Shown piece after piece: positions 1 to 21,727 of a stretch of 64,000 nt of DNA. How positions within the stretch are numbered: the stretch's first letter is position 1; each line of letters opens with the position of its first letter. Both the position numbers and the translations under genes were made by a program. The notes below the pieces were generated by a model. It made no database searches. It was given only the letters and a program-made list of their open reading frames with translations, and had not been told where the DNA came from. The DNA is from Alkalispirochaeta sp. (GTDB lineage Bacteria > Spirochaetota > Spirochaetia > DSM-27196 > Alkalispirochaetaceae), in assembly GCA_965601925.1 (NCBI GenBank), contig OZ271854.1:1344001-1408000 (forward strand), given 5' to 3'.

Positions 1-3000
1 GCATCGCCGCGCGCTCCTCGGCGATGAGGTCCCCGTAGCGCTGGTCCCGACTCGCGTCGGTCACGCGCTCGGCGTGCTCTTCCACCAAACGCAGGACGGT
101 GCGCGCTCGTTCCAACTCCTCGCTCCGCCGCAGCACCACCGCCGCCGGGTCGATCTCGTCGGTCAGATACCCGGTGCGCGCGTAGTCCATGATCTCCTCG
201 GCCTCTTGTAGCTCGCGACGCGCCGCGGTATACGCGCCCCGCGCCGTATCCACTCCGCTCGCCGCCGCCTCATAGTCCGTCACCGCCTCGTCAAAGGCGC
301 GAATCGCCTCCTCGTACTCCCGTCGGGCGTCGTCCACCCTCCCGCGCTGCGTCTTGATATCTTCCTTCAGCGGGGCGATCGTGTCGCGAGCAAAGCGGTC
401 GGCATCCGCCTCAAAGTCCGCTTGCGTCGCCCGCGCCGCATCCAGGTCACCCAGCGTCCCCAGATAGGTCGACTCGGCACCCAGAAAGGTCGTCCGGGCG
501 CCGGATCGTGCGCTCCCCGCCGCCCCGTCGGTCACCAGCTCCACGATCTCGTCGCGGCTGCTCGTCGTCAACGCCGCGATCGCCGCGCCGATCAGCCCCT
601 TGATCGGCGCGCTCGCGATCCCCCCGGTTATCGTACCGCCGGTCAAGGTGTGATAGCTCGTGTCACCCGCCTCGTCCACCAGATGTCGCAACCACGCCGC
701 CCCGGCGTTGGCTTTCGTCAGATGCTCGTACTCACTCCGCAGGGCGCCGACACCCGCGTCGTCGGCACTCCCGCCGACCGCGGCCGCCGCCGCATCGCGA
801 TCCTCCGCACTCGCATCCGGGTCTTCCAACACCTCCAACGCCGCGGCCAACACCTCGGCGCGCTCCCGATTCTCCAGGGGACCCACGAACGACACCGACC
901 CACCCAGCTCCGCGATCCGCGCCCGCGTGTACACCGTCACCAGGTCCGCCACCGCCGTGGGAATGTCGTCCATCGCCACCAGCTCTTCGTAGATATCCCG
1001 CAACGTCGCAATGGAGGGGGGAGCGCCGTCCGCGGTGATCGGCGCCACGATCGCCGTTACCGTCGCCGCGTAGGCGGCCATTCGCGTCCCGATCGTGGTG
1101 ATCGAGACCTCCCGATACGCCTCCCACGCGTCCCGTAACGCCTCGGCGTCGGCGAGTGCCGTCACCTCGTCGCGGAGCAGATCGTCCACGAGTCCCGCGT
1201 AGTCGACGCCGAAGTCCGTATCCCGCTCTCCGGTCTCAAAGACGATCCGCGCCGCTCCCGCCGCATCGCTCCCGTCCAACAGTGCATCCATGTCGATCGT
1301 CACCAGAGCCGGGTCAAAGACCACATACGCCACCCCCGGCGGCGGCGTGCCCGCTCCCGTGTCGTCGGTCAGGATATAGACCGTGCCGATCGCCGGATTC
1401 GCGGGGATCTCGCTCGCATCGGCCACCGTCACCACCGTCGGCTCCGTCGGCGCACTCAGGCCCGCGTCCACGGCCGCCGTCACCGCCGCCGCGTAGGCGC
1501 TCGTCACCGCCGTATCTCGCGCCGCCTCGATCGCCACGGCCTCCGCCGCCACCAAGGTGTCGTAGTGTCCTTGGATCGCGTCGCGCGCCGCCTCTCGCGC
1601 CGCGTCCAGAGCCGTGTGGGCCGTCGTCACCGCCATGGCATGGCCGTCCCCGATCACCGCGATCTCATCCGTGCTCGCCCATCCCGCCTCGTCGGTCACC
1701 ACCGTGCCGCGCAATACGCGGATCGCGTACTCGCTCCGCGCCACATCCCGTGCCGCCGCCGCGGTCGCATCCGCCAGCAGCCGTTCCGCCGCCAGCTCGC
1801 GCAGCCGTCGCTCCGGTGTACCCGCACCCACCGCCGTCGCCGCATCGATCGCCGCCACCAGGTCCGCATATCGTCCCGTCTCGATATCGAGTCCCGCCGC
1901 CGCCAAGGTCAGCCCCAGCTCCTCGGCGTCCACCGTCGCCCAATCGATCGCGAGCCCCGCGAGTACATCTCGGTGCGCGATCAGCGTCGGAAGGTCGACG
2001 TACTCGTCGCTCTCCGCATCGTCGCTCCCGGCAAGGTCATGGGCGATCGAGAGCGCGTCCTCCCACGCCGTCGCCACATGCGCATCCGCGTCGGCTCTCG
2101 CATACGCCTCCGCATTCGCCGCACGCCCTTCGCCGGCGTGCGTCGTAACGTGATCGGAGAGGGTGCGAATCAACGTGTCGTAGACGCTCGCGTCGTTTAA
2201 CCGCTGCACCTCTTCCGCCGCCGCAAGCTCCGCGGTAATCCGTCGCAGCTCCGCCTCCTCGATCGAGAGCGCCGCCTGCCGGTCCGCCAACGCCGCCTGG
2301 GCGTCGGGTAACAGCGTCCGCGTCATCGTCTCCAAGGTCGCGATCGCCTCGGCAAACGCCGCCTCCGCCGCCTCGAACGCCGCCCGCTCCACAGCATAGC
2401 GCGCCTCGGTCTCGGCCAACGTCGCGCGGTCCGAGGAGGTATCCGCCGCGTATGCGGCCACCGCCTCGGCAATGGCGTGCTGATCCTCCAGCGCGGCGAC
2501 CATGCCCGCCAGTCGCGCCGCCTCCACCTCGCCGGAGCTCAACGCCGCCCCGTAGGTGTCCAGCTCGCCGAACATCCCGTACAGACTCGCCTGGGCGCCG
2601 TCGCGCATCGCCTCGAAGTCCGCCAACACTCCGCCGGTCCCGTCCGCGCCGTGCCAATAGACCAGCTCCTCGTTCACCTCCGCCAACGATGCGGCGATCG
2701 AGGACAGCTGGTTGTTCGCCAACGCGATTTCCATCGTGAGTCTCGCCATCGGCGACTCGTGATCGTGATGAGTGATACCTAAATGGTTCTGGAGCCACGG
2801 CACCCATCTGGCGGTGCGCTCATTGACGTATCCTTGCAACCGTCGATCACGGTCCGAACTTCTTTCCGTGATGGTGCGTGAGTCCTCGGCTCCTTCAACC
2901 TCTCTCGTCTGCCGTTCCAGGAGTTTCGGATCGAGTCCGTCGGCGGCCAGAAATGTCTGTACAAGATTCATATTCGATTCATGACCGCCATTCAAAAACG

Positions 3001-4297
3001 CCGCATATCTCGCAGGCGGCAATGCGGCTTGGTCGGCGTTTCGTTGCAAGAGGTACTCCGCTTGGTCCGCCTCCAGCGTCTCTTTCATTCCTTCCAGGGC
3101 GGCGATGTTCTCTTTCGCCATCGCCACCACGTCGGCCGCCTGGCGATACACCGCCAGATACGCCTCGCTCTCCGATCGGATCTTCGCCTGTTCTTCCGCC
3201 GCCGCACGGGCAAGCTCCGCCATCGTCTCGTCAAACGAGTCCCGAAACGCCGTCGTCGTCTCCTCCCACGCCGCCGCACCTACCGCCAGCACGTCCTGCA
3301 TCTCTCCGATCCACGCGCTCCGCGACGCCTCGAACGATCGTAACGCCTCGTCCCACGCCGCCTCCGCCTCGCGATACTGCTCCTGCGCCTCCGACTCCCA
3401 CGCCATCCGTTCGGCGATAAATCGCTCTTCCGCACCGTTCCACGCGCTCAATCCCCGCGCAAACTCCGCCTCAAAGCTCTCCTGCCACGCCTCCGCCTCT
3501 ATCCGCGCCTCGCCCACATCCGCGTCACCCTCCGGTACCAACGCCGCCAGATGCGCACTCACCTCGTCCAACCTCACCTGCGTGTCGCGAATCAACCGCC
3601 CCGCCGTCGACCGCGCCGTCTCCTCCTCCGCCTGCCGCCGCATGCTGTAGCTGTCCTGTAACCGCCCCTGCGCCAGCCGCCGGCTCGATCGTATCACCTG
3701 CGACCGAAACTCCCGCTCGATATGCGCCTTGTACTCGCCCACCGATACCGCCAGCTCGCTCGCCACCGTCTCCCGCACCGCGCCCTCAAACGTTCCCAAC
3801 ACCTCCGTCGCCGTCGCCTCCGCGCTCGCTTCCCACGCCGTGTACAACGCCGCAAACGCATCCTCGACCTCCGCCTCCCACGCCGCTTCGGCCGCCTCGT
3901 ATCCCTCCGCACCCTGCAGGATCACATCCCCCGCCTCGTCGAAGGTGTACTCACCCCCGCCGTCGGTCTCGTACAGATACCGCCGATTCGCCGCATCGAT
4001 CGCGCGCCGCAGCCCCGCCGCGTCGAACCGCGCCACCGACCGCTCCCATTCCGCCTCGACCACCCGGCCCAGACTCGCCGCCCACCGGTCGCCCAAGGCC
4101 GCCGTCTCCCACTCGTCCAGTCCCCCCAGGCCGATCCCCGTCACCGCCTCCCATTCCGCGATGCTCCCGCTGCGACTCGCCCGCTCGTACACACCCTCGC
4201 CGACGACGTGATCGCCCGTCTCAACGTCGTCCGGCATCTGCCCGACGACCGTTCCCGTGCATGCCGCGATCAGTACTGCGATTCCTATTCGTCTCAT
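1..4297 (-). CDS. Giant exported coiled-coil protein of unknown function, 3' end outside the window (at least 1432 aa)
   Basis: Not in the ORF track because it has no stop in the window. Manual translation: AGAGAGGA RBS, ATG 4297, MRRIGIAVLIAACTGTVVGQMPDD...WQESFEAEFARGLSAWNGAEERFIAERMAWESEAQEQYREAEAAWDEA...DLIAEERAAM at position 2. Frame read or spot-checked along its length with no stop found; strong GCG/GAG codon bias. Confidence 0.9.
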   Translation of the reverse strand, partial: MRRIGIAVLIAACTGTVVGQMPDDVETGDHVVGEGVYERASRSGSIAEWEAVTGIGLGGLDEWETAALGDRWAASLGRVVEAEWERSVARFDAAGLRRAIDAANRRYLYETDGGGEYTFDEAGDVILQGAEGYEAAEAAWEAEVEDAFAALYTAWEASAEATATEVLGTFEGAVRETVASELAVSVGEYKAHIEREFRSQVIRSSRRLAQGRLQDSYSMRRQAEEETARSTAGRLIRDTQVRLDEVSAHLAALVPEGDADVGEARIEAEAWQESFEAEFARGLSAWNGAEERFIAERMAWESEAQEQYREAEAAWDEALRSFEASRSAWIGEMQDVLAVGAAAWEETTTAFRDSFDETMAELARAAAEEQAKIRSESEAYLAVYRQAADVVAMAKENIAALEGMKETLEADQAEYLLQRNADQAALPPARYAAFLNGGHESNMNLVQTFLAADGLDPKLLERQTREVEGAEDSRTITERSSDRDRRLQGYVNERTARWVPWLQNHLGITHHDHESPMARLTMEIALANNQLSSIAASLAEVNEELVYWHGADGTGGVLADFEAMRDGAQASLYGMFGELDTYGAALSSGEVEAARLAGMVAALEDQHAIAEAVAAYAADTSSDRATLAETEARYAVERAAFEAAEAAFAEAIATLETMTRTLLPDAQAALADRQAALSIEEAELRRITAELAAAEEVQRLNDASVYDTLIRTLSDHVTTHAGEGRAANAEAYARADADAHVATAWEDALSIAHDLAGSDDAESDEYVDLPTLIAHRDVLAGLAIDWATVDAEELGLTLAAAGLDIETGRYADLVAAIDAATAVGAGTPERRLRELAAERLLADATAAAARDVARSEYAIRVLRGTVVTDEAGWASTDEIAVIGDGHAMAVTTAHTALDAAREAARDAIQGHYDTLVAAEAVAIEAARDTAVTSAYAAAVTAAVDAGLSAPTEPTVVTVADASEIPANPAIGTVYILTDDTGAGTPPPGVAYVVFDPALVTIDMDALLDGSDAAGAARIVFETGERDTDFGVDYAGLVDDLLRDEVTALADAEALRDAWEAYREVSITTIGTRMAAYAATVTAIVAPITADGAPPSIATLRDIYEELVAMDDIPTAVADLVTVYTRARIAELGGSVSFVGPLENRERAEVLAAALEVLEDPDASAEDRDAAAAAVGGSADDAGVGALRSEYEHLTKANAGAAWLRHLVDEAGDTSYHTLTGGTITGGIASAPIKGLIGAAIAALTTSSRDEIVELVTDGAAGSARSGARTTFLGAESTYLGTLGDLDAARATQADFEADADRFARDTIAPLKEDIKTQRGRVDDARREYEEAIRAFDEAVTDYEAAASGVDTARGAYTAARRELQEAEEIMDYARTGYLTDEIDPAAVVLRRSEELERARTVLRLVEEHAERVTDASRDQRYGDLIAEERAAM

Positions 4298-4519
4298 CTT
4301 CGTCCTCTCTCTATCGCTCGTCGTCGTCTCGGCCGACCCGCCGCCTCGCATGCGCCCGTTGTGCACCGCGATCGAACGCACCCTCCGCCCACGCCGCACC
4401 GGCGTCGCGCGAAGCATGCGTCCGTCGAAATCCTGGGATCACTCGAGATGGCCGTATCTCCCTCATGAACACACAACACGATACGGTCTCTCGGACCGCG
4501 GCGCTTCATATACGGAGAT

Positions 4520-4800
4520 ATCGCTGTGTTTGACTTGCTTTCACTATATCATAGTGCGCATGTGAATAAAAGGAATATCAACACAATACGTAATGATTCT
4601 TCAATGTTTATCAAATAATATTAATTATATTGGAATAAAGGTATTCTTTTGATCGAACCAAAGGCGGAATACACAGCGTCTTGAGATGGCAAACGGATTG
4701 AGACTCCATGTATTCACATTATGGGATATCATGCTATAAATATCACTGAAGTGACATTGATGCGAGAATACGGATGTCACTTTTTGGTTTATCCAATACT
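4520..4800. promoter_or_regulatory. AT-rich divergent promoter region between the giant gene and the TolC/RND operon
   Basis: Abrupt AT-rich tract (e.g. TTTATCAAATAATATTAATTATATTGGAATAAA) in a GC-rich context, between divergent starts; individual -35/-10 boxes not resolved. Confidence 0.6.
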
Positions 4801-4813
4801 GGTGACCGCGGAC

Positions 4814-5476
4814 GTGAAACACAATCGATACAAGATATACACCGTCGTGACGGCATTCCTTTTTCTCTTGGTAGCGTGTAACCGAGCATCGGATCGCCCC
4901 GAGGCGGTATTGACGACGTATTTGCAGGCCCGATCCGCCTACGTAGCGGGCAACCTCGACGAGGCGACGCGGCGCGTAACGTCGATACTGTCACAGAGTC
5001 CCGATCACGTGCCGTCTCTCGTACTTGCCGGGAGAATCGCTTTTTTTGCGGACGACGTGACCTCCGCCCGGGATTATCTCCAACAGGCTCTGGCCGCGGA
5101 TCCGTACCACGTCGACGCGGCGTGGTGGCTTTCGGAGATATATCTCTCCGAGGGGCGGTTCGAGGAGGCGCGCCCGGTGGTCGAGAATGCATTACTCTCC
5201 GCCTCGGAGGATCCCCGCCTCTTGATTCAACTCGCGCGAATCGACGAGGAGTCCGGCGAGCTGTCGCGAGCGATCGAGTTGTACGAGCGTGCACTATTAT
5301 TTTCCGACCAGCTGGGGTACGGAGCGTTACGTCTCGGTGATCTATACCGACGAGAGGGGTTCGGCGAACGCGCTGCACACTCGTACGAGCACGCAGCACG
5401 CTTACTGTCGGAGAATAGTTCGCTCGCGGCGCTGGCTCGCTCTCGCATACGGGCCACTGCGGGAGGTGATCAATAA
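4814..5476 (+). CDS. Tetratricopeptide-repeat lipoprotein
   Basis: Start reassigned to GTG 4814 (MKHNRYKIYTVVTAFLFLLVA-C lipobox); several TPR-like helix pairs (ARDYLQQALAADPYHVDAAWWLSEIY, AIELYERAL); stop overlaps next ATG (TAATG). Confidence 0.8.
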   Translation: MKHNRYKIYTVVTAFLFLLVACNRASDRPEAVLTTYLQARSAYVAGNLDEATRRVTSILSQSPDHVPSLVLAGRIAFFADDVTSARDYLQQALAADPYHVDAAWWLSEIYLSEGRFEEARPVVENALLSASEDPRLLIQLARIDEESGELSRAIELYERALLFSDQLGYGALRLGDLYRREGFGERAAHSYEHAARLLSENSSLAALARSRIRATAGGDQ

Positions 5477-5958
5477 TGCATACGAAGGCACGGTGCATAC
5501 TCGGCCTCGTAACGGTCTTGGTGTTAAGCGGTTGCCGCATACTACAACCGAACATCGTCGAGGCGGGATTTCGCGATCCGGTCATTGTCGAGCAATTGGA
5601 CGCAATCCGCGTCGAGCCTCGGCGCATCGATATTCACGGGTTCGTCGGCGACGAGACCATGCGGGACCATAGTCAGGTAATTATCGATCAACTCGTGCGC
5701 AACGCGAATGTGGAGGCACCGGAGAGCCCGGTCGCCATCGTCGACGCGGTGTTGCGCCAGGATCGTTACGTACGAGAATATCGCGAACGGTTTGCAGTGA
5801 CCGTGGAGTTATCGGTCTACTTAGACGAAGACTCGGCGACACCCGCTGCGACGATGATTCGCACCATCGATACCGATACGCCGGCACGATCCTATCGCTT
5901 TTTGTATCGGCAGTACGAGCATGCGTTTGGCGCACTGTTTGGCCGGCGAGTACGGTAA
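5476..5958 (+). CDS. Small lipoprotein of unknown function
   Basis: Signal peptide with lipobox LVLSG-C; overlaps both neighbours. Confidence 0.75.
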   Translation: MHTKARCILGLVTVLVLSGCRILQPNIVEAGFRDPVIVEQLDAIRVEPRRIDIHGFVGDETMRDHSQVIIDQLVRNANVEAPESPVAIVDAVLRQDRYVREYRERFAVTVELSVYLDEDSATPAATMIRTIDTDTPARSYRFLYRQYEHAFGALFGRRVR

Positions 5959-7357
5959 GTTAGCCGTCGTCGGCCTCTTTGTCGTGTGCGGCGTGGTTTC
6001 TCATTCCGTCGACGCACAATCGCAGCCGCTGCAAATTCTCACGGTAGACGATGCAATCGATCGCGCGCTCGCCGAGAGTAGCGATCTCCAACTCGCGCGT
6101 CTGACTACATCGCTCAGCGCCGATGCGGTTAGACGCGACGTACTGTCGATTCTTCCCACGATCGAGGTCTCGTATCTCGATTCACGATCGGTGACGGAGG
6201 CGGGGCCGGACACATATCAACGAACGCTTTCGGTCGGTGTCGATCAGATCATCTACGACAATCGTACCTACATCAACCAACGACGATTTTCGCGCGCCGA
6301 CCTTAGTCTGGCGACGCGTGCGTTGACCAACGACGAAAACGCACTCGCCATTCAAGTATTGGAACAGGTGATCGCCTCGGTGCGGCTTCGCCGGGAAATC
6401 GCGATCGAACGCGTCATCCTGGAGAACCTGTACGACCAACTACGAATCGCAACCGAGGAACGTCGTCTGGGAATCATCACCGAGCTGGACAGACTGGATG
6501 TGGCGATCCGCGTCGCCGAGTTCGAACAGAGCCTGACACTTCGCGAGCTTGAGCGCGACGAGACCCGCTTCGCCCTCAATCAACTCCTGGGGTATCCCCC
6601 GCGAACCGAGGTCGCGTTTACCGAAGATATCGACGAAGGATTCTCCGGCTTCCTCGACAATCTCGATCCTCAGTGGTATCTGGAACAGGCGACGGTAAAC
6701 AATCTCGATCTGGCGAGGAGCCGTTTGGCGTTGGAGCAGCAAGGCGCCGAGATAAGTGCGCTGCGTCGCCGCTGGATCCCGCTTATCTCGGCGGGTGCCG
6801 ACGTGAGTTTCAGCGGGGATGAGCTGCCGCTCACCGATCCCGGATACTCGGTCGACGTTACGTTGCGCTGGGACCTTCCGCTGGCGCCGAGCGACATCGA
6901 TCTCTCGGCCGGACGGCAGGCGCCCCGAACCCGAAATGCGAGTGCCGGCGTCACAACTACCGTGAACGGCACCGGCGACGACCTCGCGAGCGCCCGCGCG
7001 GTCAGAATCGAGGCTCTGCGTACGCGCACGCAAATCGACGCCTCCGAAGAGGCGCTCGACTTCCAGATAGAGCGTTCGATTCGCCAGATCGAGGGTAGTC
7101 GCGTCCTTCTGGAATCCTTGCGAGAGCGTCTCAATCTCGAGTCACAGCGTCTTGAGGTATCCGAGCTTCTATTGGACTTGGGGCGACTCACGCGGGTCGA
7201 CTACGTCGATGCGATCGTATCCCGGGCGGAGCTCGAGTTGAGCCTCGTCGACAGCCTCGTCGAACTATTTCTCCAGGAGACGGCGTTGCTGCAACTGGCC
7301 GGAGTAGCAATATCGCCGTCTCAATATCGCCGTCTGATTCGGAGTATCGAAGAATGA
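5921..7357 (+). CDS. TolC-family outer membrane channel
   Basis: Signal peptide; LTVDDAIDRALAESSDL start of mature protein; two OEP-like repeats (RRLGIITELDRLD and LDLGRLTRVDYVD); adjacent adaptor and RND genes. Confidence 0.85.
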   Translation: MRLAHCLAGEYGKLAVVGLFVVCGVVSHSVDAQSQPLQILTVDDAIDRALAESSDLQLARLTTSLSADAVRRDVLSILPTIEVSYLDSRSVTEAGPDTYQRTLSVGVDQIIYDNRTYINQRRFSRADLSLATRALTNDENALAIQVLEQVIASVRLRREIAIERVILENLYDQLRIATEERRLGIITELDRLDVAIRVAEFEQSLTLRELERDETRFALNQLLGYPPRTEVAFTEDIDEGFSGFLDNLDPQWYLEQATVNNLDLARSRLALEQQGAEISALRRRWIPLISAGADVSFSGDELPLTDPGYSVDVTLRWDLPLAPSDIDLSAGRQAPRTRNASAGVTTTVNGTGDDLASARAVRIEALRTRTQIDASEEALDFQIERSIRQIEGSRVLLESLRERLNLESQRLEVSELLLDLGRLTRVDYVDAIVSRAELELSLVDSLVELFLQETALLQLAGVAISPSQYRRLIRSIEE

Positions 7358-10211: not shown

Positions 10212-11650
10212 CGCGCGGTACGAGATCGGCGGCGATCGTTTTGCTCGTACTGATATCTCTATCGGGGTGTCAAATCTACAACGAATGGGAAGATATGAAT
10301 CCGGTAACGGTGGACGCCGCGTTGAATGAAGAGGACGGAGTGATCGCCCTCTCATTTTCCGCCGCGATGGATCGCGCCCGGACGGAGGATGCGATCGAGG
10401 TGCGCCGAGACGGTTCGGTTGTGTTATCGCAGAACGCGTGGACGCAGGGTGCACGGACTTTGACGCTGTCACCCGACGGCGGCATCGAGACCAACGACGT
10501 CATCGTCCTCTCGGTGGAGACCTCGGCGGAGGATCAATACGGAAACTCCCTGGCGGAACGATACGAGCGTACATTTGATTTGCGAGCGGAGACCGATCGC
10601 CCCTTCGTCGTCTCGGTGTCCCCCGACAGCCGGCTCCTCGTCACCGATCTGACGACCGAGATCGTGATAACCGCGTCGGAGTCGCTGGACAGAGAGACGG
10701 TGTTCAACGGTATCTCCATCAGCCCGGACCCCGGATACCTCCTTCTTTTCGATAGCGACGACGCGATCGTTCGCATCCGGCCGAATACACGGCTCGAGCG
10801 GGATACGCGCTACACGATCACCGTCGACACGTCGGTCCGCGATACGGCGGGAAACACGTTTGCCGAGCGTTGGGAGTCGAGCTTTCGGACGGCGGCGGAG
10901 ATCGAACAAGCGGTCGAGTCGGTGCAACTCATACGAACCGGCGAGTTTTTGAGCGACGATACGACGCAATTCATCAACAACACCGCCGGGCTCTCCTTTG
11001 AAAAGGACGACTCGTTTCAGGTTCGCTTTGTCGGGCCTGTTGACGAGTCCGAGCGCGCGTCGGCAATTAGCGTCACGCCCTCGGCCGGAGCCGAGTTCAG
11101 CTGGAACGCCGCGCTGGATACGGCGGTAGTCTCGTTCTCCGAGTCCTTGACGTGGAATACGGAGTACACACTCAACGCCGCCGATACGCGATATCGGTTT
11201 GTTATCGACGGCGCCGCATCGCAGCCGCCCTCGATCGCGCACGTGGTGTTCATTCCGGATATCGACGCGGTGCCGCCCTCATACCCAGTGGCGGAGTTCG
11301 GGAGCGCACTCACGTTCTCTCCGAATCCGGTGGTTCAAAGCGCCTTCGACGTATACGTCGATCGAGCCGCCGGCGCATCGCTGGTGTTCGGGTCGGTGCT
11401 GTCGGCGTTCTCGCTGAGTGCGAGCAATGCCGCGGTCGCCATCGACCTCGATCGAGTCGAAATCGACCCGACCGCCCCGCCCTCGGATCCGGTTCCGGAT
11501 GCCCAGCAAACGGTGGTACGTTTCGTCGGTAACTTCACGAAGGCCGGCGGCACCGACGGCATCGTCACCCTGGAGCTCTCCACCGATCTGGAAGATGATC
11601 TCGGCAACTTCCTCGCGGAACTCTATCGGTTATCCGTAAATGCAGAATAA
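10208..11650 (+). CDS. Second lipoprotein with tandem Ig-like (SbsA/Big_5-type) domains
   Basis: GTG 10208 overlaps upstream TGA; lipobox LSG-C; LSFSAAMDR..SAEDQYGNSL, PFVVSVSP..TRYTITVDTSVRDTAGN and C-terminal LEDDLGNFL motifs. Confidence 0.8.
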   Translation: MTRGTRSAAIVLLVLISLSGCQIYNEWEDMNPVTVDAALNEEDGVIALSFSAAMDRARTEDAIEVRRDGSVVLSQNAWTQGARTLTLSPDGGIETNDVIVLSVETSAEDQYGNSLAERYERTFDLRAETDRPFVVSVSPDSRLLVTDLTTEIVITASESLDRETVFNGISISPDPGYLLLFDSDDAIVRIRPNTRLERDTRYTITVDTSVRDTAGNTFAERWESSFRTAAEIEQAVESVQLIRTGEFLSDDTTQFINNTAGLSFEKDDSFQVRFVGPVDESERASAISVTPSAGAEFSWNAALDTAVVSFSESLTWNTEYTLNAADTRYRFVIDGAASQPPSIAHVVFIPDIDAVPPSYPVAEFGSALTFSPNPVVQSAFDVYVDRAAGASLVFGSVLSAFSLSASNAAVAIDLDRVEIDPTAPPSDPVPDAQQTVVRFVGNFTKAGGTDGIVTLELSTDLEDDLGNFLAELYRLSVNAE

Positions 11651-14642
11651 ATCTACCGCCACGTCCGTTCTCGAACGGCTCTTCGCCCATCCCCTTTCGA
11701 TCGTGATGGTGGCGCTCGCGGTCGTCCTGATGGGTGGTGCCGCGGCAACTCAGATTGAGATCGCGCCGCTTCCCGACGTCGAGCTGCCGAACATCCTGAT
11801 TATCACCGCCCTCGAAGGCCTGCCCGCCGAGGAGATAGAACGGCTCGTGACGGTGCCGATGGAGTCGGCGCTCTCGGGTATTCAAGGGGTCGAGCACGTT
11901 CGATCGATGAGCATTCGAGGGGTGTCGCGCATCGAGTTGGAGCTGGCGTGGGGCTCCGATCCGCAGTCGATCGCGCTCGATGTCCGTCGTGCGGCGGGGC
12001 TCGGATTTGCGTCCCTTCCCGACCGCGCGGAGCTTCCGTTGGTGATTACGCGATCCATCGCGGAGACTCCCGATTTCGTCATTGCACTCATCCCGAGAAC
12101 CGATGAGTCGCCGGACCGCCTCTATCGCGCCGTCGAGACGCAGGTGCTTCCCGCATTCAGAACTCATACCACCGTGGGTAGACTGCGCTCGGCGGGGGCG
12201 TGGCGTCCCGAGGTGCACGTCGAAATCGATCCCGATGCGGCGGCGGCGCTCGATATCGGTACGACGACGATCGCCTCGTTGATCTCGTCGTCGGTCTTCG
12301 ATTTACCGGTAGGGACACTCCGCGAACGCGACCGGGAGATAACACTCACGGCGTCCACGGGCGTCAATACGGTAGCCGATATCGCGGCCCTTCCGATCCC
12401 GAGCGATTCGCCCAGTATTCAACGCCGTCTCGGCGACATTGCTCGTATACGTCTCAACGCGGAACCGGCCACGGGAGCCGTCGTCGTGGACGGAGCGCCG
12501 GCCGTGGTGGTCGAGGTGTATCGATCCGATCGAGCGAGTGTCTTGGCCCTCACGCGCGACGCCTACGCCGCCGTCGGTGAGATTCGACGCAGATTGGGTG
12601 AGCGCGTGGAAATCGCGGTACTTCGCGACGCCGGAAGCGCACTCGGTAGCTTGGTCCGCGGAACGGCGACGGCGTTGGCGATCGGAATAGCGGTAGTGAC
12701 ACTGTTGGTTTCCGCCGGAACGCGCAGTGCGTCACTCGCGACGGCCGTGCTGGCGATACTGCCGGTATCGATTTTCGGTACCATATTCGTGCTGTTTCTC
12801 GGCGAGTTCACCCTCAACACGGTATCGATAACCGGATTCGCCGTCGGATTGGGATTGGTCGTGGACGGCGGAATCATCGTCGTCAACGCCATTCGCCGCG
12901 ACGCTCCGCTGCGCGGCGCCGCCGAGGTCGCCGCGGCGGTGGGAGGTGTGCTTCCGTCGCTCTTCGGATCGATGGTCACGACGATACTCGTGTTCATACC
13001 GGCGATTCTCGTGCCGGGCCGTTTCGGTGCCCTCGTCGCCGAGTTCGTGGTAGTAATCGCCTCGCTTCTCGCGTGGGCGTTTGTGTGCGCAGCCGTACTC
13101 ACTCCGGCGGTCGCTATGTTATCGGGCGTCGATGCGCGCGGTGGGACGCGTGAACGTCGCCGACGGACGCCGGGATCGCGGTTCCAACCTGCGATCAAGA
13201 CGATCTCCTCCGCGGCGAGAGTCCATTGGAAGGCGACACTGTCGGTGATGACGCTCGTCACGGCAGTCGGCGCGGCGCTCATTACCGTCGTCCCGCGCGA
13301 GTTGACGCCGTTTGTGCTGCAAGATCGTGTATCCGGCGAATTGTGGCTTGAGCCGCGCACGACGATCGAGGACGCGAGAGCCGTCGCCGCCTCGATTACC
13401 GAGGAGCTGTCGTCGCTTCCATGGGTCGACCACGCACGCGCCGACATCGGGGTAGTGGCGGATACCCTCGAGGAACGTTCGCGAAGTTTGAACGATCGTA
13501 GTATCGTCCACCTACATATCACCCGCGCTTCTGCCGAACGAGTAACCGAGAGCAGAGTCCGCTCGGACGTCATGCGCATATTCAGCCGATTCGATCCTCT
13601 GTACTCGATCGTGTATCTGCCGCCCGATAGCGTTCAATCCGCGTTGGGCGACACCCCGGTAACGTCGGCGTTGCTTTCGGCGGACTCGAGGTCCGAACTG
13701 GACGGATCGATCACAACGGTGTTGACGGATCTCGGTTCGGTATGGACGCCTCTCACGGAGCGAATGGAGGCGCAAACGGTACTCAACTTCGATACCGATC
13801 GTGTCGCGTTATTGAATCTGGCTCCCGCAACCGTGTTGGAGGAGGTGAACACCGCAGTCGACGGACGGGTGGTCGCCTCGATCGGTGAGGCGACGGATCT
13901 CCTCCCGATTCGGGTACTGCTGGACCCGGACGCGCTCGCCGGGACCGACTCGGTTGCCGAGATTCAGGTACCTGCGGGACAATCGGGCCGGACGGTCGAA
14001 GTGTCGTCGGTAGTCGACTTCGGAAATCGGCTCGCGTTACGGGAACTGAGACGAGTCGACGGCCGTCCGGCGACGATATTTCGCGCCGCCGGCCGCGTCA
14101 CGCCGCGGAGCTCTGCGCCGGTGACGGTCGAGGGTGATATCGATGAGCAAATGCGCTCCTTGGCCGCCATTTCAGCGATTGCACTCATATTGGTGTACTT
14201 GGTGTTGGGCGCCCAGTTCGCCTCCGTACGCCTCCCGCTCTTTTGCCTGGTCGCCATTCCACTCTCGCTTCCCGGCTCGGTGGGCCTCATGCTCGCGGCG
14301 GGCATTTCCATCAACCTCTACTCCATGATCGGGCTACTGGTGGTGATAGGTACGACGATAAACGCCGCCATTCTCTTGATCGCGGAGTTTCGTTCGGCAT
14401 CCAGGCCGCCGGAGGAGATCGTCGCCGAGCGCGCACGAACCGTCGCGATGACCGTGACGACGTCGATCGCCACCGTTCTCCCGATCGTCCTCTCCCGCTC
14501 TCCGGAGACCATTCTTCAAAGACACACCGCTATGCCGATCGTGGGCGGATTGTTATTCGGAACGGTGTGCGTGGTAGCGACCTTTGCGGTGTTTGCACGC
14601 TGGATATCACGTCCCGGTTATTCGGAGCCGGAGGGCCGGTGA
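11640..14642 (+). CDS. AcrB/AcrD/AcrF-family RND permease subunit 1 (divergent)
   Basis: 1000 aa; GLPAEEIERLVTVPMESALSGIQGV, GLVVDGGIIVVN, LVYLVLGAQFAS..P and two TM clusters give the RND topology. Confidence 0.85.
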   Translation: MQNKSTATSVLERLFAHPLSIVMVALAVVLMGGAAATQIEIAPLPDVELPNILIITALEGLPAEEIERLVTVPMESALSGIQGVEHVRSMSIRGVSRIELELAWGSDPQSIALDVRRAAGLGFASLPDRAELPLVITRSIAETPDFVIALIPRTDESPDRLYRAVETQVLPAFRTHTTVGRLRSAGAWRPEVHVEIDPDAAAALDIGTTTIASLISSSVFDLPVGTLRERDREITLTASTGVNTVADIAALPIPSDSPSIQRRLGDIARIRLNAEPATGAVVVDGAPAVVVEVYRSDRASVLALTRDAYAAVGEIRRRLGERVEIAVLRDAGSALGSLVRGTATALAIGIAVVTLLVSAGTRSASLATAVLAILPVSIFGTIFVLFLGEFTLNTVSITGFAVGLGLVVDGGIIVVNAIRRDAPLRGAAEVAAAVGGVLPSLFGSMVTTILVFIPAILVPGRFGALVAEFVVVIASLLAWAFVCAAVLTPAVAMLSGVDARGGTRERRRRTPGSRFQPAIKTISSAARVHWKATLSVMTLVTAVGAALITVVPRELTPFVLQDRVSGELWLEPRTTIEDARAVAASITEELSSLPWVDHARADIGVVADTLEERSRSLNDRSIVHLHITRASAERVTESRVRSDVMRIFSRFDPLYSIVYLPPDSVQSALGDTPVTSALLSADSRSELDGSITTVLTDLGSVWTPLTERMEAQTVLNFDTDRVALLNLAPATVLEEVNTAVDGRVVASIGEATDLLPIRVLLDPDALAGTDSVAEIQVPAGQSGRTVEVSSVVDFGNRLALRELRRVDGRPATIFRAAGRVTPRSSAPVTVEGDIDEQMRSLAAISAIALILVYLVLGAQFASVRLPLFCLVAIPLSLPGSVGLMLAAGISINLYSMIGLLVVIGTTINAAILLIAEFRSASRPPEEIVAERARTVAMTVTTSIATVLPIVLSRSPETILQRHTAMPIVGGLLFGTVCVVATFAVFARWISRPGYSEPEGR

Positions 14643-17428
14643 AACGCTCCGTATTTCTCATCGGGATTATCGTTCTGTTCGGTGTCCTGGCGATACGCAC
14701 GATCAGTGTAGGATATTTGCCGGACCGACAAGATCCGCGGGTCAGTGTGCTCGTTCGCTACGACGGAGCGTTCGCCAACGAGGTAGAGCGCACCCTTACG
14801 ATTCCGATCGAGGACGCCATCGCGTCCGTGGACGGTGTGCGCTCCATATCCTCGATATCTCGCGACGGCCAAACGCGCGTAGGAGTTCGTCTGCGACGCG
14901 GTGCACATCTCGATCACGCGGTAGTGCGCGTATTGGATGCGCTCGATCGCGTACTGAGCGACGCACCGACGACCGTCGGGCGCCCCATCGTTACGAGAAA
15001 CGCGGCGGACACGAGGCCCACGTTCATTGCATCGCTTCCGAAGGACCGATTTCGTACACGAGAGGAGATCGAACGCTACTTTGGTCGGGTGGAAGGTGTC
15101 GGCCGCGTTGATGTCGCGGGGTTCCCGCAACAACAGGTCGTTGTGCGACTCCGGGAAGCGTACGACACCAACGTTGCAACCGATATATTTGCCGTTGCGG
15201 AGACGATTCGCGAGGCAAACAGCGTCGTCGGATTGGGCGGCAATAGAGCCTTGCCGATTGTCGCCGACACGCGATTTCGTACGATTGAGGACTTTCGCAA
15301 TCAACGACTCGATGAGGTCAACTCGGTCGGCAGGTTGGCTTCGGTGGAGCGGGACGAACGCGAGCCGGAGTCCACCAGCGTCGTGAACGGTACACCGGCG
15401 GTCGTCGTGTATGTGAGCCCCGCCTCGGGAGCCAACGTCGTGCGCGTTAATCGAGCGCTCCGCGCGTCCATCGGCGCGATTGAACGATCCGAAGTGTTGT
15501 TCGACCAGGGGTCGATCATTGAGGACGCACTCGGCGACGCGCTGCGAGGCTTCGCCGTCGGAAGCGTACTGGTAACCGTTGCACTGCTACTCATTACGCG
15601 CAACGGAAGGCGGAGCATTGCGGCTGCGGCGGCGTTACCCGCAGCGGCATTTGCAGCATTCGCCGCTCTCGGCGCATTCGGGTTGCCCGCCGATGTTCTC
15701 GCCGTATCGGCCCTTGCGGCATCAATGGGCTTCGTCGCCGACGGGGCGGTGGTCCTGGCCATCGAAGGGTCCGCACCGGGTGTCCGACGAGGCCTGCTCG
15801 TCTCGACGATTTCCACCGTTGTCGTCTTCGTGCCGCTGATTCTCGATCCGTCGGGTACCGGCTCATTTTATATAGGATTTGCACTCGTCGTTATAAGCGC
15901 GCTGGTTACCGGTCTCGTATGGGGTCTCTTCTTCATTCCGGCGAAGTCCGCCGGCCGCGCTCCGGAGCGGGAAGACCGAACGACTCCGTCGCCGTTCGCA
16001 CCATCGTGGTTTGGGCGGATGACTCGCGCGGTTCATCGTATGCGGTTCGTCGTGTGGATCGGTATTCTCGCGGTAGTGGGAGTCGCCGTGTGGAGCATCC
16101 ACGATACGCCGATCGGGTTTTGGCCTGAGCTCGACGAGCGTCGTACCGGGATTGTCGTCGAGTATGACGCCGGCACACCGCGGTCGAGGCTCGAAACTGA
16201 AATGTCGAACGCGTACTCGGTGCTTGCGTTGTACGACGAGTATGAAACGATCATCTCCCGAACCGATCGCAGCAGAATCAGCTTCGAGATAACGCACCGC
16301 GCTCAACCGAATCAAAATACCGTCGATACCCTTGTCACGCGCGTTCAAGAGTCGGTGCAGGGTAGTGTATTCCTCATCAATCAGGCTGAGGGGGCGACTC
16401 GAGTGCCGATCCACGTCATCGGAAATGATCCGATAACGACGCAACGAGTCGCATCAGAGCTCGCCGACTACCTGCAAACCGCCGTCCCCGACAGCACAGC
16501 CGTACTGAACTTCAAAAGGCCGCCACGGCAAGCCGAGATGGTGGTCGATACGGAAGCGGTCGTCTCTACGGGGGGACGGCCGAACGAAATACACCGGCAC
16601 GCGTATTGGCTTCTATCGAATCCCGTCGGATTCAAATGGCTCACGGATCGCGAAACCGACGTGCGATTCGGGCGCACCACGCCGATCGAGACGGCGGACG
16701 ACCTTCTTCGAACGACGATCACACCGACCACCGGACGGCCCCTACGGTTAGAATCGGTCGCTACCGTCAGGGAAATCGACCGCCCGGATACGATCTTCAG
16801 AATCGATCGTTCCCGAGCATCGACCATTAGCGTCGAGTTCCCGCGCTCCGCCCAAATACTCTTCGAGCGGACGGTCGACGGGGCGGCTCCCGAATACGAA
16901 GCGCATGCAGACGTTCGTATCGCAATCGATCCGACATTTTTTGAGACGCGGGAAACGGGACGTCGCGCCATAGGGGGCGTCGTCTTGGCGATACTATTCG
17001 TCACGGTATCGATCATCGCCGGCCTTGAACACGTTCGCGACGGCCTCTTGGCAGCCCTGGTCGCGGTACCGTCGGTAGTCATACCGGCGACGGTCGCCCG
17101 CTTTGCGTACGACGGAATCTCCGAGCCGGTTCTATTGGCGCTTCTCTTGTGTGGCGGAGTAGGCGTCAACAACGCGGTTGTCGTCCTTTCCGCCGCCGGA
17201 AAAGATGGGGCGAAATCCTTGGTTGAGGTGCTATGGCGTAAGATACCGTCGCTTCTCGCCGCAGGGGCAACAACGATTCTCGGCGTTCTGCCGCTCGTCG
17301 TCGTGGGAGGCCGCGCTCGCGGCGTCGTAGCGCCGGTCTCCATTACCCTGGCGATCGGTACCGTCGTCGCCCTCGCGGCGACGATCGTAGTGCTGCCGAT
17401 CGGTCGGCGCGGAAAACCTGCGCCTTAG
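14639..17428 (+). CDS. AcrB/AcrD/AcrF-family RND permease subunit 2 (divergent)
   Basis: GTG 14639 overlaps upstream TGA (929 aa); GAFANEVERTLTIPIEDAIASVDGV, SGANVV, GFVADGAVV and GVNNAVVV motifs. Confidence 0.85.
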   Translation: MKRSVFLIGIIVLFGVLAIRTISVGYLPDRQDPRVSVLVRYDGAFANEVERTLTIPIEDAIASVDGVRSISSISRDGQTRVGVRLRRGAHLDHAVVRVLDALDRVLSDAPTTVGRPIVTRNAADTRPTFIASLPKDRFRTREEIERYFGRVEGVGRVDVAGFPQQQVVVRLREAYDTNVATDIFAVAETIREANSVVGLGGNRALPIVADTRFRTIEDFRNQRLDEVNSVGRLASVERDEREPESTSVVNGTPAVVVYVSPASGANVVRVNRALRASIGAIERSEVLFDQGSIIEDALGDALRGFAVGSVLVTVALLLITRNGRRSIAAAAALPAAAFAAFAALGAFGLPADVLAVSALAASMGFVADGAVVLAIEGSAPGVRRGLLVSTISTVVVFVPLILDPSGTGSFYIGFALVVISALVTGLVWGLFFIPAKSAGRAPEREDRTTPSPFAPSWFGRMTRAVHRMRFVVWIGILAVVGVAVWSIHDTPIGFWPELDERRTGIVVEYDAGTPRSRLETEMSNAYSVLALYDEYETIISRTDRSRISFEITHRAQPNQNTVDTLVTRVQESVQGSVFLINQAEGATRVPIHVIGNDPITTQRVASELADYLQTAVPDSTAVLNFKRPPRQAEMVVDTEAVVSTGGRPNEIHRHAYWLLSNPVGFKWLTDRETDVRFGRTTPIETADDLLRTTITPTTGRPLRLESVATVREIDRPDTIFRIDRSRASTISVEFPRSAQILFERTVDGAAPEYEAHADVRIAIDPTFFETRETGRRAIGGVVLAILFVTVSIIAGLEHVRDGLLAALVAVPSVVIPATVARFAYDGISEPVLLALLLCGGVGVNNAVVVLSAAGKDGAKSLVEVLWRKIPSLLAAGATTILGVLPLVVVGGRARGVVAPVSITLAIGTVVALAATIVVLPIGRRGKPAP

Positions 17429-18858
17429 CGCAATATTCCCCGAAGTCGCTCCGCTTGACGCCCGGTAGCGGTAATAAGCGCCTGTTCGAGGCGCGCGTTG
17501 AAAACCGGTAACGCGGCGATTTGAGTGAGAACCAACTGTGCGTGTAACACATATGGATTATCCGGGAGCGCGAGCATGGCGATCACCGGATCGACGGCGA
17601 ACGACTCACCGCTTGTCAAAGCCGTCTCGACGCGTTCGTTAACCTCCGCAGGCAGCAGAAGCGGCGCGTCGTCAAAGCCGTCGATGTTCAAGAGTCGTCT
17701 CACCTCTTCGCGAGTGAGCGCTGCGTGCTGTGTCGTCGGATTCAGCAGTATCGCCTTCTCCAAAAGAGGCTGGGCGGTCGTGAAGGAGTACTGCTCCGAC
17801 TGAGCGGCGGCCGACTGCCACAATCGCACATAGTACGTCTGCGAGAGACGGGAAAATATCTCAAGGTCGACGGCGCTGCCGATGGCGCTCGTCTCCGGTT
17901 CGCTTGTCCATAGAGCATTGAGTATCTGAATCTCGGGAAAGGCATCGGTCGTCTCGACGAGCTCGGCCGGAATAGCGGTAACCCCCGAGCCGGCAAACCG
18001 CGTCGTCGACTCTCGCGCCCAGCTATCGGCCGACAGAGACGATAGGATCGCATTCAACTCGATCTGTTCGCGCTCCATCCGATAGTCCGAAAAAAGAGCG
18101 ATACGCGCGATGCGCACCAACGCCGATAACTCAACTTGTCCCAGTTGAGAAAGCACGTTCGATCGAACGGCCAAATCCTGCGGGCGAAATCCGTACCGCG
18201 CCGCGCGTATGCCGCTCACCGCCAAAACGTCCTCCAAGCGTTCCGAGGAGAGAAGCGCGACGATGTAGGAGTCGAAGGCCTGCGCCGAAAATGATGCGGG
18301 ATCCTCGGCCCATGCCGCATCGAAGTCATCGAGTGCCGCGTCGATGTCTTCGGACGCCAAGCGACTCATCCCGCGCAATACGCGAAATGTGGCGTTCGCA
18401 CTTCTCTCGAGAGCTCTACTGGTGGCGTCGATCGATAGCTCGAAATCACCGGTCTCGAGCGCAACGACCGCAAGACCGCCGTCGATACGATCGAGCAACG
18501 GTTCGGGGGTGCGGTTATCGATTCGCTCCACGGCGTGGAGAAGCGCGACCTTCGCGGCTTCGCGCTGACCGCGACCGTACAACACCTCACCCAGTTCGAC
18601 CAGATCGGCTGATGTATTCCGGTCCGCGAGCGCAGCCTCCAACGCGCGCGCCAACTCCAAATCGGCACTCACGACACCACCATCGACTTGCGTCTGTTCG
18701 GACGCCGATATCTCTTCGGTGGATGAGTCCGACGCGGCGGTGCAGGAAACCAGCCCGACTACCAAGACGATGGTATATACCAAGAACCGCATCAACGGTC
18801 CGACGGTACGCTCTTGAGAGACGGTACTCTTTGCCGATATCGGTATGTGAAGGGCCAT
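17425..18858 (-). CDS. TPR-like alpha-helical lipoprotein
   Basis: AGGAG RBS before ATG 18858 (alternative ATG 18792); lipobox LVS-C; TPR-like segments (VLRGMSRLASEDIDAALDDFDAA, LLEKAILLNP); stop overlaps the RND2 stop convergently. Confidence 0.75.
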   Translation of the reverse strand: MALHIPISAKSTVSQERTVGPLMRFLVYTIVLVVGLVSCTAASDSSTEEISASEQTQVDGGVVSADLELARALEAALADRNTSADLVELGEVLYGRGQREAAKVALLHAVERIDNRTPEPLLDRIDGGLAVVALETGDFELSIDATSRALERSANATFRVLRGMSRLASEDIDAALDDFDAAWAEDPASFSAQAFDSYIVALLSSERLEDVLAVSGIRAARYGFRPQDLAVRSNVLSQLGQVELSALVRIARIALFSDYRMEREQIELNAILSSLSADSWARESTTRFAGSGVTAIPAELVETTDAFPEIQILNALWTSEPETSAIGSAVDLEIFSRLSQTYYVRLWQSAAAQSEQYSFTTAQPLLEKAILLNPTTQHAALTREEVRRLLNIDGFDDAPLLLPAEVNERVETALTSGESFAVDPVIAMLALPDNPYVLHAQLVLTQIAALPVFNARLEQALITATGRQAERLRGILR

Positions 18859-21640: not shown

Positions 21641-21727
21641 GACGGTATGGTACCATGGGTGATGCCGCTTCTCGTGTGTGGACTCCCGGGCGAACCTCTG
21701 CAATAGTGGTCGCGAGGAGACTGGACG

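Follow-up and report, generated by a model that had tools for sequence, protein, structure and literature searches.

A conserved RND-TolC-lipoprotein operon as a candidate export or display machine for probable giant polymorphic toxins of spirochaetes

In a 64,000-nucleotide stretch of an Alkalispirochaeta genome (the window), eight overlapping genes for pump components and lipoproteins lie back to back with the gene of a giant exported protein. What does the operon do, and does it act on its neighbor? We put it at slightly better than an even chance that the operon encodes a dedicated machine that exports or displays giant, contact-type antibacterial toxins in two steps. The features of the locus are as follows:

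1..4297, minus strand (genome G000:C1:1338965-1348297): giant exported protein, first 1,432 of 3,110 aa, with a Sec-type signal; the reading frame runs off the window
4298..4813, no strand: divergent AT-rich intergenic region, from GC content
4814..5476, plus strand: TPR lipoprotein, 220 aa (Pfam TPR_19, E 8e-20; syntenic orthologues in most loci)
5476..5958, plus strand: small lipoprotein, 160 aa (positional orthologue between the TPR and TolC genes in most loci)
5921..7357, plus strand: TolC-family outer-membrane channel, 478 aa (Pfam OEP, E 2e-27)
7354..8724, plus strand: RND-type periplasmic adaptor (MFP) lipoprotein, 456 aa (TIGR01730, 184.6 bits versus a cut-off of 94.9)
8721..10211, plus strand: Ig-like lipoprotein 1 (Ig1), 496 aa (three Big_5 stretches and a family-specific C-terminal part)
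10208..11650, plus strand: Ig-like lipoprotein 2 (Ig2), 480 aa (Pfam Big_5, three stretches)
11640..14642, plus strand: RND subunit 1 (RND1), 1,000 aa (Pfam ACR_tran)
14639..17428, plus strand: RND subunit 2 (RND2), 929 aa (Pfam ACR_tran; system-specific clade)
17425..18858, minus strand: convergent TPR lipoprotein, 477 aa (Pfam; overlaps the RND2 stop)

All eight open reading frames of the operon were found where the initial annotation had placed them, from 4814 to 17428, each overlapping its neighbor. The successive overlaps are 1, 38, 4, 4, 4, 11 and 4 nt (TAATG, ATGA and GTGA junctions, plus two longer overlaps). Pfam assigns the genes, in order, to TPR, none, OEP, HlyD_D23, Big_5 (three stretches), Big_5 (three stretches), ACR_tran and ACR_tran. 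The unassigned 160-aa lipoprotein has no match in NCBIfam either, and its Atlas lead is DUF4410-like (score 0.91, 15% of cluster members). Five of the eight proteins carry a lipobox-like Cys after a hydrophobic stretch, the number claimed earlier; the motifs, called by eye without a SignalP-type tool, are LVAC in the TPR protein, LSGC in the 160-aa protein, LLSC in the adaptor, VASC in Ig1 and LSGC in Ig2. In some Leptospiraceae operons the equivalents of Ig1 and Ig2 are fused as one protein of 1,100-1,230 aa.

The AT-rich gap that the operon has in common with the giant is likewise present, with 24% GC at 4560-4660 and 37% at 4500-4813, versus 62% for the window. About 320 bp adjoining the giant's start recurs, at 82-83% identity, upstream of both other giant paralogues in the genome, and a sigma-70 scan of the region returned one site versus 1.1 expected, which is chance level. 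At the other end of the operon, homologues of the 477-aa TPR lipoprotein flank the operon in several class-Spirochaetia loci, and thus this protein is probably an accessory component.

The giant, with its signal peptide, is transcribed divergently from the operon as described; 1,432 aa fall in the window and the full protein in the genome has 3,110. It begins with a Trp-rich helical domain conserved across Spirochaetota, for which Pfam and NCBIfam gave no match to a trafficking or repeat family, and continues as a long helical body. AlphaFold models residues 21-470 as helical nearly throughout (pLDDT 79), and an N-terminal hydrophobic peak recurs in 18 of 23 long giant ORFs. Beyond the window, there is a hydrophobic Gly/Ala segment near aa 2350, an HExxH motif at 2702 and a tip with HxxxD at 2963 and HxH at 3043, which is M23-like by motif and Atlas lead only (0.94, 149-156 of 256 features). 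The model of the pre-toxin region is weak (mean pLDDT 58, tip under 40). Foldseek returned nothing at E<=0.001 for the N-terminal and pre-toxin models, and in a fold search of both, the weak pre-toxin model included, the best Z scores (11.2 and 8.4) were to generic helical bundles. Word-index protein searches, which are insensitive, gave 7 and 4 matches.

The genome holds three giant paralogues alongside one operon, and identity among the three falls from 98-99% over aa 1-200 to 16-25% over the last ~300 aa. Orphan cassettes lie 3' of the window's giant (1,046, 827 and 546 aa) and of paralogue 2 (864 and 680 aa), each followed by a small exported-looking gene. A repeat of 170-290 bp marks cassette boundaries; four unrelated sites that were checked elsewhere in the genome carry it too, without additional cassettes. 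In the closed genome G210, orphan cassettes occur alone, with neither the N-terminal domain nor an Ig match. Across the survey, 114 giant C-termini sort into 49 groups, of which some (e.g. the P0138 group) probably consist of truncated proteins and not of genuine tips, and an HExx[HR] motif lies within the last 700 aa of 71 of the 114. Pfam recognized M23 in three and PT-HINT in two of a first set of 23 tips, the other 18 having no Pfam toxin or HINT match; M23, NlpC/P60 and M15 were each found once in a second set of 13. A hydrophobic segment starts 21 of 23 genes downstream of giants. None of 28 partner genes matched known immunity families, and binding folds (glycan-binding, LRR, SH3, RCC1) are frequent among them. 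The initial annotation had left the giant as an adhesin or a polymorphic toxin. Swapped tips, orphan cassettes, partners with signal peptides and the M23, NlpC/P60, M15 and PT-HINT domains speak for the second, and the giant is in all likelihood a polymorphic toxin.

Is the operon tied to it? In a sample of 300 Spirochaetota genomes, searched with profiles for the giant's N-terminus and the operon's Ig gene, 59 had both, 11 the Ig gene only, 2 the giant only and 228 neither. Thus, the Ig gene is present in 59 of 61 giant-positive genomes, and the neighborhood association suggested earlier was borne out, with a giant in 59 of 70 Ig-positive genomes and the two within 20 kb in 32 of these 59. 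A 2x2 table of these counts overstates significance, as related genomes do not count as independent observations. For the Ig gene, the cut-off of 1e-50 was chosen after the list was seen; at 1e-25, 98 other genomes match, and the 28 that are dropped comprise 20 Leptospiraceae, several of them with second-type operons (see below), and 8 others. When the 26 profile-seeding genomes are left out, the Ig gene is found in 34 of 35 giant-positive genomes, 20 of them linked (hand count). Operon and giant may be divergent, co-oriented with the giant upstream, or arranged with the giant inside the cluster; since gene order varies, the link survives rearrangement. The distance between the giant and the first operon type is 90 kb in G061 and 360 kb in G275. 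About a fifth of the sampled genomes carry the system, including Treponema-like and Leptospira lineages, and because the pairing recurs across the phylum, it exceeds chance. From these distributions, the operon is very probably a functional partner of the giant.

Leptospiraceae provide a further instance. Here, a second operon type tracks a second, TIGR04388-like giant family: the RND2 clade is found in 21 of 24 genomes with this family, within 22 kb in 14, and three Leptospiraceae genomes with weak second-family matches have no RND match at 1e-60. This linkage is an independent replicate of the operon-giant pairing. The second family matches the giant N-terminal profile at E 4e-12, a distant relationship. 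The TIGR04388 model itself matches in three of five Leptospiraceae genomes and, at its 45-bit cut-off, nowhere in the Alkalispirochaeta genome or in the scanned full-length giants.

How the partners might work together can be pictured in five steps. Sec would take the giant into the periplasm, where the TPR, small and Ig-like lipoproteins may keep hold of it and stabilize the channel. Driven by protons, a heteromer of RND1 and RND2 would then, together with the adaptor, open TolC and feed the helical rod outward, exposing the tip while the N-terminal domain is retained or released. At contact, the hydrophobic pre-toxin segment could engage the target envelope, and the HExxH or HINT domain could free the tip. 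From the target's periplasm the tip would kill, in many cases as a peptidoglycan hydrolase (M23, NlpC/P60, M15), and the exported partner protein would protect kin. That the operon is the outward conduit for the giant, the central element of this scheme, is a view towards which we lean modestly.

An alternative that we consider unlikely, though it fares best of the four weighed here, makes the operon an anchor or assembly scaffold: the giant would exit through type II secretion or by translocating itself, and the RND-adaptor-TolC assembly and lipoproteins would tether, load, energize or trigger it but would not be the conduit. The same linkage and co-occurrence would result, four extra lipoproteins suit a scaffold, and a type II secretin that could perform the outer-membrane step is present in Leptospira according to the available text of PMC9586249. 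RND2 is also degenerate in class Spirochaetia (K971). In the window, RND1 keeps the equivalents of AcrB D407, R971 and T978, with N at K940, and RND2 keeps that of D407, with K971 and A978; R or K occupies 971 in 18 of 21 RND2 sequences. What weighs against a scaffold is that the complete channel (TolC, adaptor and two RNDs) is kept everywhere, with the D407 equivalent, the TM4 Asp, in 43 of 43 RNDs (RND1 22 of 22, RND2 21 of 21), and that a second secretion gene was not seen in the fetched loci. On these counts, an energetically dead second RND is not supported for the family as a whole.

Some genomes have the operon and no detected giant, which counts against the favored reading. A second giant profile still found none in seven of ten tested Ig-positive, giant-negative genomes (G004, G006, G020, G164, G273, G062 and G105), all of them drafts of 30-770 contigs; the G062 operon is broken, and the first five named have all eight operon genes. 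Intact operons of this kind would also suit a complex that is instead the entry route in the target, such that toxins reach only operon-carrying relatives (kin recognition or policing), with the surface Ig-like proteins as possible receptors. TolC serves some colicins as an entry route. CdiA-EC93 needs AcrB in the target cell, as stated in the available text of PMC7690452. Hijacked receptors are housekeeping proteins, however, not toxin-linked genes; a toxin-less cell would gain by dropping the entry route, and the giant's own exit is left unexplained, so import seems less probable again than a scaffold.

The same giant-less operons might also point to a small-molecule pump, only loosely tied to the giant, that exports a metabolite, lipid or glycan for it or guards against envelope damage. 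The components do belong to standard RND-pump families, and the paired RNDs resemble MdtBC. Yet in both trees (FastTree with 71 rows; IQ-TREE quick with 31 rows), neither RND nests with E. coli AcrB, MdtB/C or CusA, as the phylogeny proposed in the initial annotation might have shown; the trees include only three E. coli HAE-1 references and gave long-branch warnings. RND2 forms a system-specific clade, and RND1 is one group in FastTree and two in IQ-TREE, so that its monophyly is not secure. None of the 43 RNDs has AcrB D408 or K940, the Phe-pocket residues F136 and F178, or a CusA metal-site Met at any of positions 573, 623 and 672 (M573, M623, M672); the D-x/N pattern is also found in many ordinary spirochaete RNDs. 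In the fetched loci, the giant is a recurrent neighbor of the operon and no biosynthetic or regulatory gene is. The range outside Spirochaetota was covered by one pattern scan (26 loci), and genes for Ig or small lipoproteins are absent from the 20 more distant RND loci of non-spirochaetes. A pump of this kind is thus a quite improbable explanation. Least probable of all is a giant that acts as a variable adhesin, or as a surface or structural protein (compare the TIGR04388 name), with tips varied for antigenic or binding diversity, as the long helical body, the many tips without a Pfam toxin match and the binding folds of partner genes might suggest, given that catalytic peptidoglycan-hydrolase and PT-HINT domains occur among the tips, tips have their own adjacent, exported-looking partners and the system is common in environmental lineages without a host.

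The earlier interpretation is therefore supported in part: giant co-occurrence, RNDs outside the AcrB, MdtB/C and CusA groups and the toxin reading have support, the adhesin reading does not, and passage through the RND-MFP-TolC channel and chaperone or scaffold roles of the lipoproteins stay proposals. In its fullest form, the export reading would be an undescribed secretion type, spirochaete-restricted in these searches, in which a heteromeric proton-driven RND repurposed from efflux threads Sec-exported helical toxins of 200-450 kDa through TolC, assisted by lipoproteins of the Ig-like, TPR and small types. Such a system would be the principal weapon that the phylum uses on contact, and in Leptospiraceae two pairs of operon and substrate would have diverged together. 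We regard this as about as probable as not. If true, it would widen the cargo range of RND pumps, so far drugs and metals, to include giant proteins and add a secretion route, give spirochaetes an interbacterial weapon, assign a function to several leptospiral genes that have long lacked one (TIGR04388 giants; TolC and Ig-like proteins chosen as vaccine candidates) and make available 49 or more tip groups with many candidate new peptidoglycan hydrolases. Even as a scaffold or entry route, the operon would be a conserved machine of eight genes whose partner is defined and which lends itself to simple genetics.

No description of a system that joins an RND operon to a giant came up in literature searches, in agreement with the earlier statement that no characterized system has this layout. 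MdtABC-TolC and other paired-RND pumps also have two RND genes, adaptor and TolC in one unit. Compared with MdtABC-TolC, AcrAB-TolC and CusCFBA, the operon's RNDs form separate clades without D408/K940, the Phe pocket or the CusA methionines, and genes for Ig, TPR and small lipoproteins belong to the unit. No RND pump is known to move a large protein. Type I secretion of the LapBCE type displays giant proteins, and HlyBD-TolC resembles the operon in having a giant substrate beside adaptor and TolC genes. The operon differs in that it contains no ABC transporter gene in any locus read, both inner-membrane genes being ACR_tran, and the giant, unlike type I substrates, has an N-terminal Sec-type signal and, by Pfam, no RTX repeats. 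Unlike CDI/two-partner secretion, the operon has no TpsB/CdiB gene, and the giant is helical in its model, without FHA beta-helical repeats; Pfam and NCBIfam scans of giants found none of the CDI/two-partner repeat families.

On the substrate side, TIGR04388 'Lepto_longest' (putative large structural protein) resembles the window's giant family by N-terminal profile and lies near a paralogous operon; the window's giant differs in not matching the model. LA_3725 of L. interrogans (LIC10502) is described in the available part of PMC4751964 as a large protein bearing PT-HINT and a TM segment at its N-terminus, and TolC LA3733/LIC10496, in that of PMC2387172, has a locus tag eight away; the likeness to giants is by description and tag position, not by sequence, and the available parts of the two papers do not connect these genes to an operon. 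PT8, as given in the available text of Nachmias et al. (10.1101/2021.10.19.465003), is a Leptospiraceae-specific toxin that they validated.

Export by Sec and then TolC is described in the available text of PMC8277102 for small proteins, by MacAB-TolC (enterotoxin STII) and AatPABCD (dispersin), with two-step cargoes reaching about 10 kDa only. The operon is similar in combining a Sec-signal cargo, adaptor and TolC, here from gene content alone. Those systems use MacB-type ABC ATPases, whereas the operon has paired RNDs and no MacB-type permease or ATPase, together with four extra lipoproteins and putative cargoes of about 2,000-4,500 aa. For the giant itself, there is a close parallel with polymorphic toxin systems (CdiA, Rhs, MafB, LXG; Zhang et al. 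2012, PMC3482391). 'RND', 'TolC' and 'Leptospira' have 0 occurrences in the first 300,000 of the 357,715 characters of that paper, supplements excluded. These systems share with the giants a conserved N-terminal trafficking region and variable tip, a pre-toxin peptidase (HExxH or HINT), an adjacent partner gene and orphan cassettes; what sets the present system apart from those described there is its linked apparatus, an RND-adaptor-TolC operon.

The eight genes at 4814-17428 share one orientation and overlap their neighbours by 1, 38, 4, 4, 4, 11 and 4 nt in order, confirming the overlapping layout of the initial annotation. In Pfam and NCBIfam scans the 160-aa product stays unassigned; the others are a TPR protein, a channel of the TolC family, an adaptor of the RND type, two Big_5 proteins (Ig1 and Ig2) and two AcrB-family transporters (RND1 and RND2). 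Lipobox-like cysteines can be seen by eye in five products, the number first reported. The gap between the operon and the divergent giant gene, described as AT-rich, falls to 24% GC against a window average of 62%, and the giant, put at 1432 aa or more, is a 3,110-aa ORF when read in the full, closed 5.05-Mb genome, which holds one operon versus three giants. Window positions 19212-23983 encode an AraC-type response regulator and a histidine kinase, then a glycosidase-like gene; the region resembles an ordinary sugar-utilisation locus, and nothing in it points to a link with the operon and giant. The longest ORF in the genome (G000:C1:282842-295312; 4,156 aa, apparent signal peptide) is an unrelated one.

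The two further giants have 3,070 and 3,117 aa. All three share 98-99% identity over the first 200 aa, have a mosaic middle and retain only 16-25% identity over the last 300 aa. When paralogues 1 (window 1-4297) and 2 (G000:C1:4152466-4161678) are compared in 200-aa blocks, identities of ~99% and ~53% alternate, and aa 401-600 are swapped; thus an internal segment has also been shuffled by recombination, and is perhaps a specificity region. The ~320 bp 5' of each giant (window 4298-4620 and its two counterparts) are 82-94% identical, which suggests a common promoter/leader copied along with the gene.

Orphan ORFs of 1,046, 827 and 546 aa lie 3' of the window's giant, repeating its pre-tip region with new variable C-terminal ends (tips), and each is followed by a small exported-looking partner gene. 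Another two orphan cassettes of this kind accompany paralogue 2. A repeat of 170-290 bp stands at the 5' boundary of every cassette and at several unrelated genome sites; four other repeat sites inspected held no cassette. The repeat may be a small mobile element or one used in recombination.

Copies of the 170-290 bp repeat in the window's own genome, all outside the window
G000:C1:1337615-1337905, repeat
G000:C1:1333085-1333370, repeat
G000:C1:1329689-1329762, repeat
G000:C1:1324172-1324353, repeat
G000:C1:4151420-4151582, repeat
G000:C1:4146883-4147057, repeat
G000:C1:4142589-4142755, repeat

At G000:C1:1325842-1326941 (L002:11842-12941), a two-ORF transposase-like element, presumably IS3-type by motif, breaks up a duplicated tip/partner cassette.

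In a representative library, the giants' N-terminal-domain profile matched 375 clusters at 50% identity. The last 250 aa of 114 long members (91 from the profile search and 23 from loci) form 49 groups, some probably truncations. Pfam found M23 in three and PT-HINT in two of 23 tips; in another 13 proteins it found M23, NlpC/P60 and M15 once each, and most tips scanned were left unassigned. An HExx[HR] motif occurs within the final 700 aa of 71 of the 114, and releasing peptidases occupy a comparable site in known polymorphic toxin systems, according to the available part of PMC3482391. A hydrophobic segment recurs ~600-1,000 aa before the C-terminus. The window's tip contains HxxxD at 2963 and HxH at 3043, and Atlas puts it close to M23 clusters (score 0.94, a lead only). 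AlphaFold models of giant regions contain long helices and three-helix bundles, and a fold search with them returned no specific structural relative. The gene directly after a giant has a hydrophobic start in 21 of 23 cases (one of the two misses is a wrong ORF pick). Some partner genes encode a glycan-binding domain of the NADase type, others LRR, SH3 or RCC1 domains or none recognised, and a scan for immunity families matched no known one; exported partners would fit toxins active in the periplasm. Judged from these sequences, the giants have a polymorphic-toxin architecture. In G139 and G186, repeated copies of a ~100-aa DUF3467 gene separate orphan cassettes (L080:9427-9729 and L081:8963-9271).

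Of 300 other Spirochaetota genomes, 36 yielded relatives in a single-sequence search, and many of these relatives are adjoined by the operon. The same genomes were then searched with Ig2 and N-terminal-domain profiles. At an Ig2 cut-off of E<=1e-50, set after viewing results (98 genomes match at 1e-25), 59 hold both Ig gene and giant, 11 the Ig gene only, 2 (both fragmented drafts) the giant only, and 228 neither; the sample includes kin, not independent genomes, and counts are given without a p-value. Homologous operons co-occur with giants: 59 of 70 Ig-positive and 59 of 61 giant-positive genomes hold both. In these 59 the two genes are within 20 kb in 32, distant on one contig in 2 and on separate contigs in 25. 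With the 26 profile-seeding genomes removed, the Ig gene is present in 34/35 giant-positive genomes, 20 of them linked (hand count). A deeper profile recovered the same 61 plus four weak matches, and within class Spirochaetia the family tallies for the two profiles are identical (e.g. 6/28 in family f3). Gene order varies by lineage (divergent, co-oriented, or with the giant between TPR and the remaining genes), and, contigs permitting, the Ig pair is accompanied by TPR, TolC, adaptor and the two RNDs, and in most cases by the small lipoprotein too.

Ten of the 11 Ig-only genomes were re-searched with a mid-region profile, which found giant fragments in three and no giant in seven, all drafts. 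Five of these seven have all eight operon genes; such genomes would count against strict operon-giant dependence. G061 has a giant split into ORFs of 1,734 and 2,821 aa, 90 kb from the operon (L025/L076), and G062 a fragmentary operon with a broken Ig gene (L053/L054); both look like decay. G150 and G288 have two operon copies each, one beside a giant (L134, L135, L136, L010), and the closed genome G210 has orphan cassettes only, with neither an N-terminal-domain nor an Ig match. Comparative genomics largely bears out the earlier interpretation; in spirochaetes, the operon is the conserved partner of a giant polymorphic-toxin-like protein family.

Leptospiraceae contain a second pair. In G114, a paralogue of the operon, in which the Ig protein is a single fused chain of 1,227 aa, lies ~13 kb from a giant positive for TIGR04388 ('Lepto_longest') and an M23 orphan. 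This giant matches the N-terminal profile built from the window's family (E 4e-12), which makes TIGR04388 a remote branch within one superfamily; the window's giant has no score on that model. Among 61 Leptospiraceae genomes, the second giant family occurs in 24, the RND2 clade in 31 and both in 21, within 22 kb in 14 of the 21; three have weak second-family giant matches and no RND2 clade. Several loci were read directly and show this layout, and the second-type loci L180, L183 and L184 have unannotated ORFs of ~930-970 and ~180-210 aa between operon and giant. First-type Leptospira giants (L024, L025, L027, L132) have a ~265-aa gene before them. In L. interrogans, eight tags separate the TolC LA3733/LIC10496 from LA3725/LIC10502 (excerpt of PMC2387172). 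LA3725 is a large protein that has PT-HINT and a TM segment at its N-terminus (excerpt of PMC4751964), and it may be a counterpart of the giants.

Export of the giants by the operon is the best explanation, held with moderate confidence. Sec would bring the giant into the periplasm, where it would be held by the lipoproteins, which would also support the channel. TolC would be opened by the RND pair with the adaptor, and the helical rod passed outward. A peptidase or HINT domain would then free the tip, which would attack the neighbour's cell wall, with kin shielded by the exported partner. This two-step model appears the most economical; architecture, linkage and pump residues are its observed part and the other steps are proposed. 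Both RND subunits may still couple protons, since the D407 equivalent is kept in 43/43 RNDs and 40/43 have R or K at position 971; the D-x/N pattern is also found in ordinary spirochaete RNDs. A scaffold role, with the giant exported elsewhere, would also accommodate the linkage and is unlikely. An entry route in target cells is less probable again, with a possible parallel in AcrB, which serves CdiA-EC93 in this way in the available text of PMC7690452.

That the operon is a small-molecule pump is quite improbable. Both transporters score far under every cut-off for named RND families, and D408, K940, F136, F178 and the CusA methionines occur in 0/43 RNDs. In FastTree and IQ-TREE trees alike, the RND2 proteins cluster together with good support; the RND1 proteins stay together in FastTree and split into two groups in IQ-TREE. 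Whether the RNDs fall in known efflux clades had been raised at the outset; neither tree places any of them with E. coli AcrB, MdtB, MdtC or CusA (long-branch warnings; few references). An RND2 pattern scan of the genome collection gave six closest loci with operon genes (five spirochaete-labelled, one unclassified), and the remaining 20 (other phyla, 23-32% identity) are plain adaptor-RND. The giant as an adhesin is the least probable reading, set beside its toxin-like tips.

Full-text searches over mostly open papers gave none whose title or opening abstract lines describe the operon or tie it to the giants; new in this analysis are the giants' toxin architecture, the phylum-wide counts and the second operon-giant pair. 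The toxin logic belongs to a known kind, and the delivery apparatus corresponds to none of the known secretion types tested. The main weakness of the two-step model is missing precedent: we know of no Sec-then-TolC export via RND, nor for a protein of this size. The operon RNDs differ from MdtABC, AcrB and CusA pumps in forming separate groups and in lacking their substrate residues. Sec-then-TolC export is known from MacAB/STII and AatPABCD/dispersin, as described in the accessible part of PMC8277102; those systems move small cargoes with ABC motors, whereas the window's operon has paired RNDs and, as proposed, a giant cargo.
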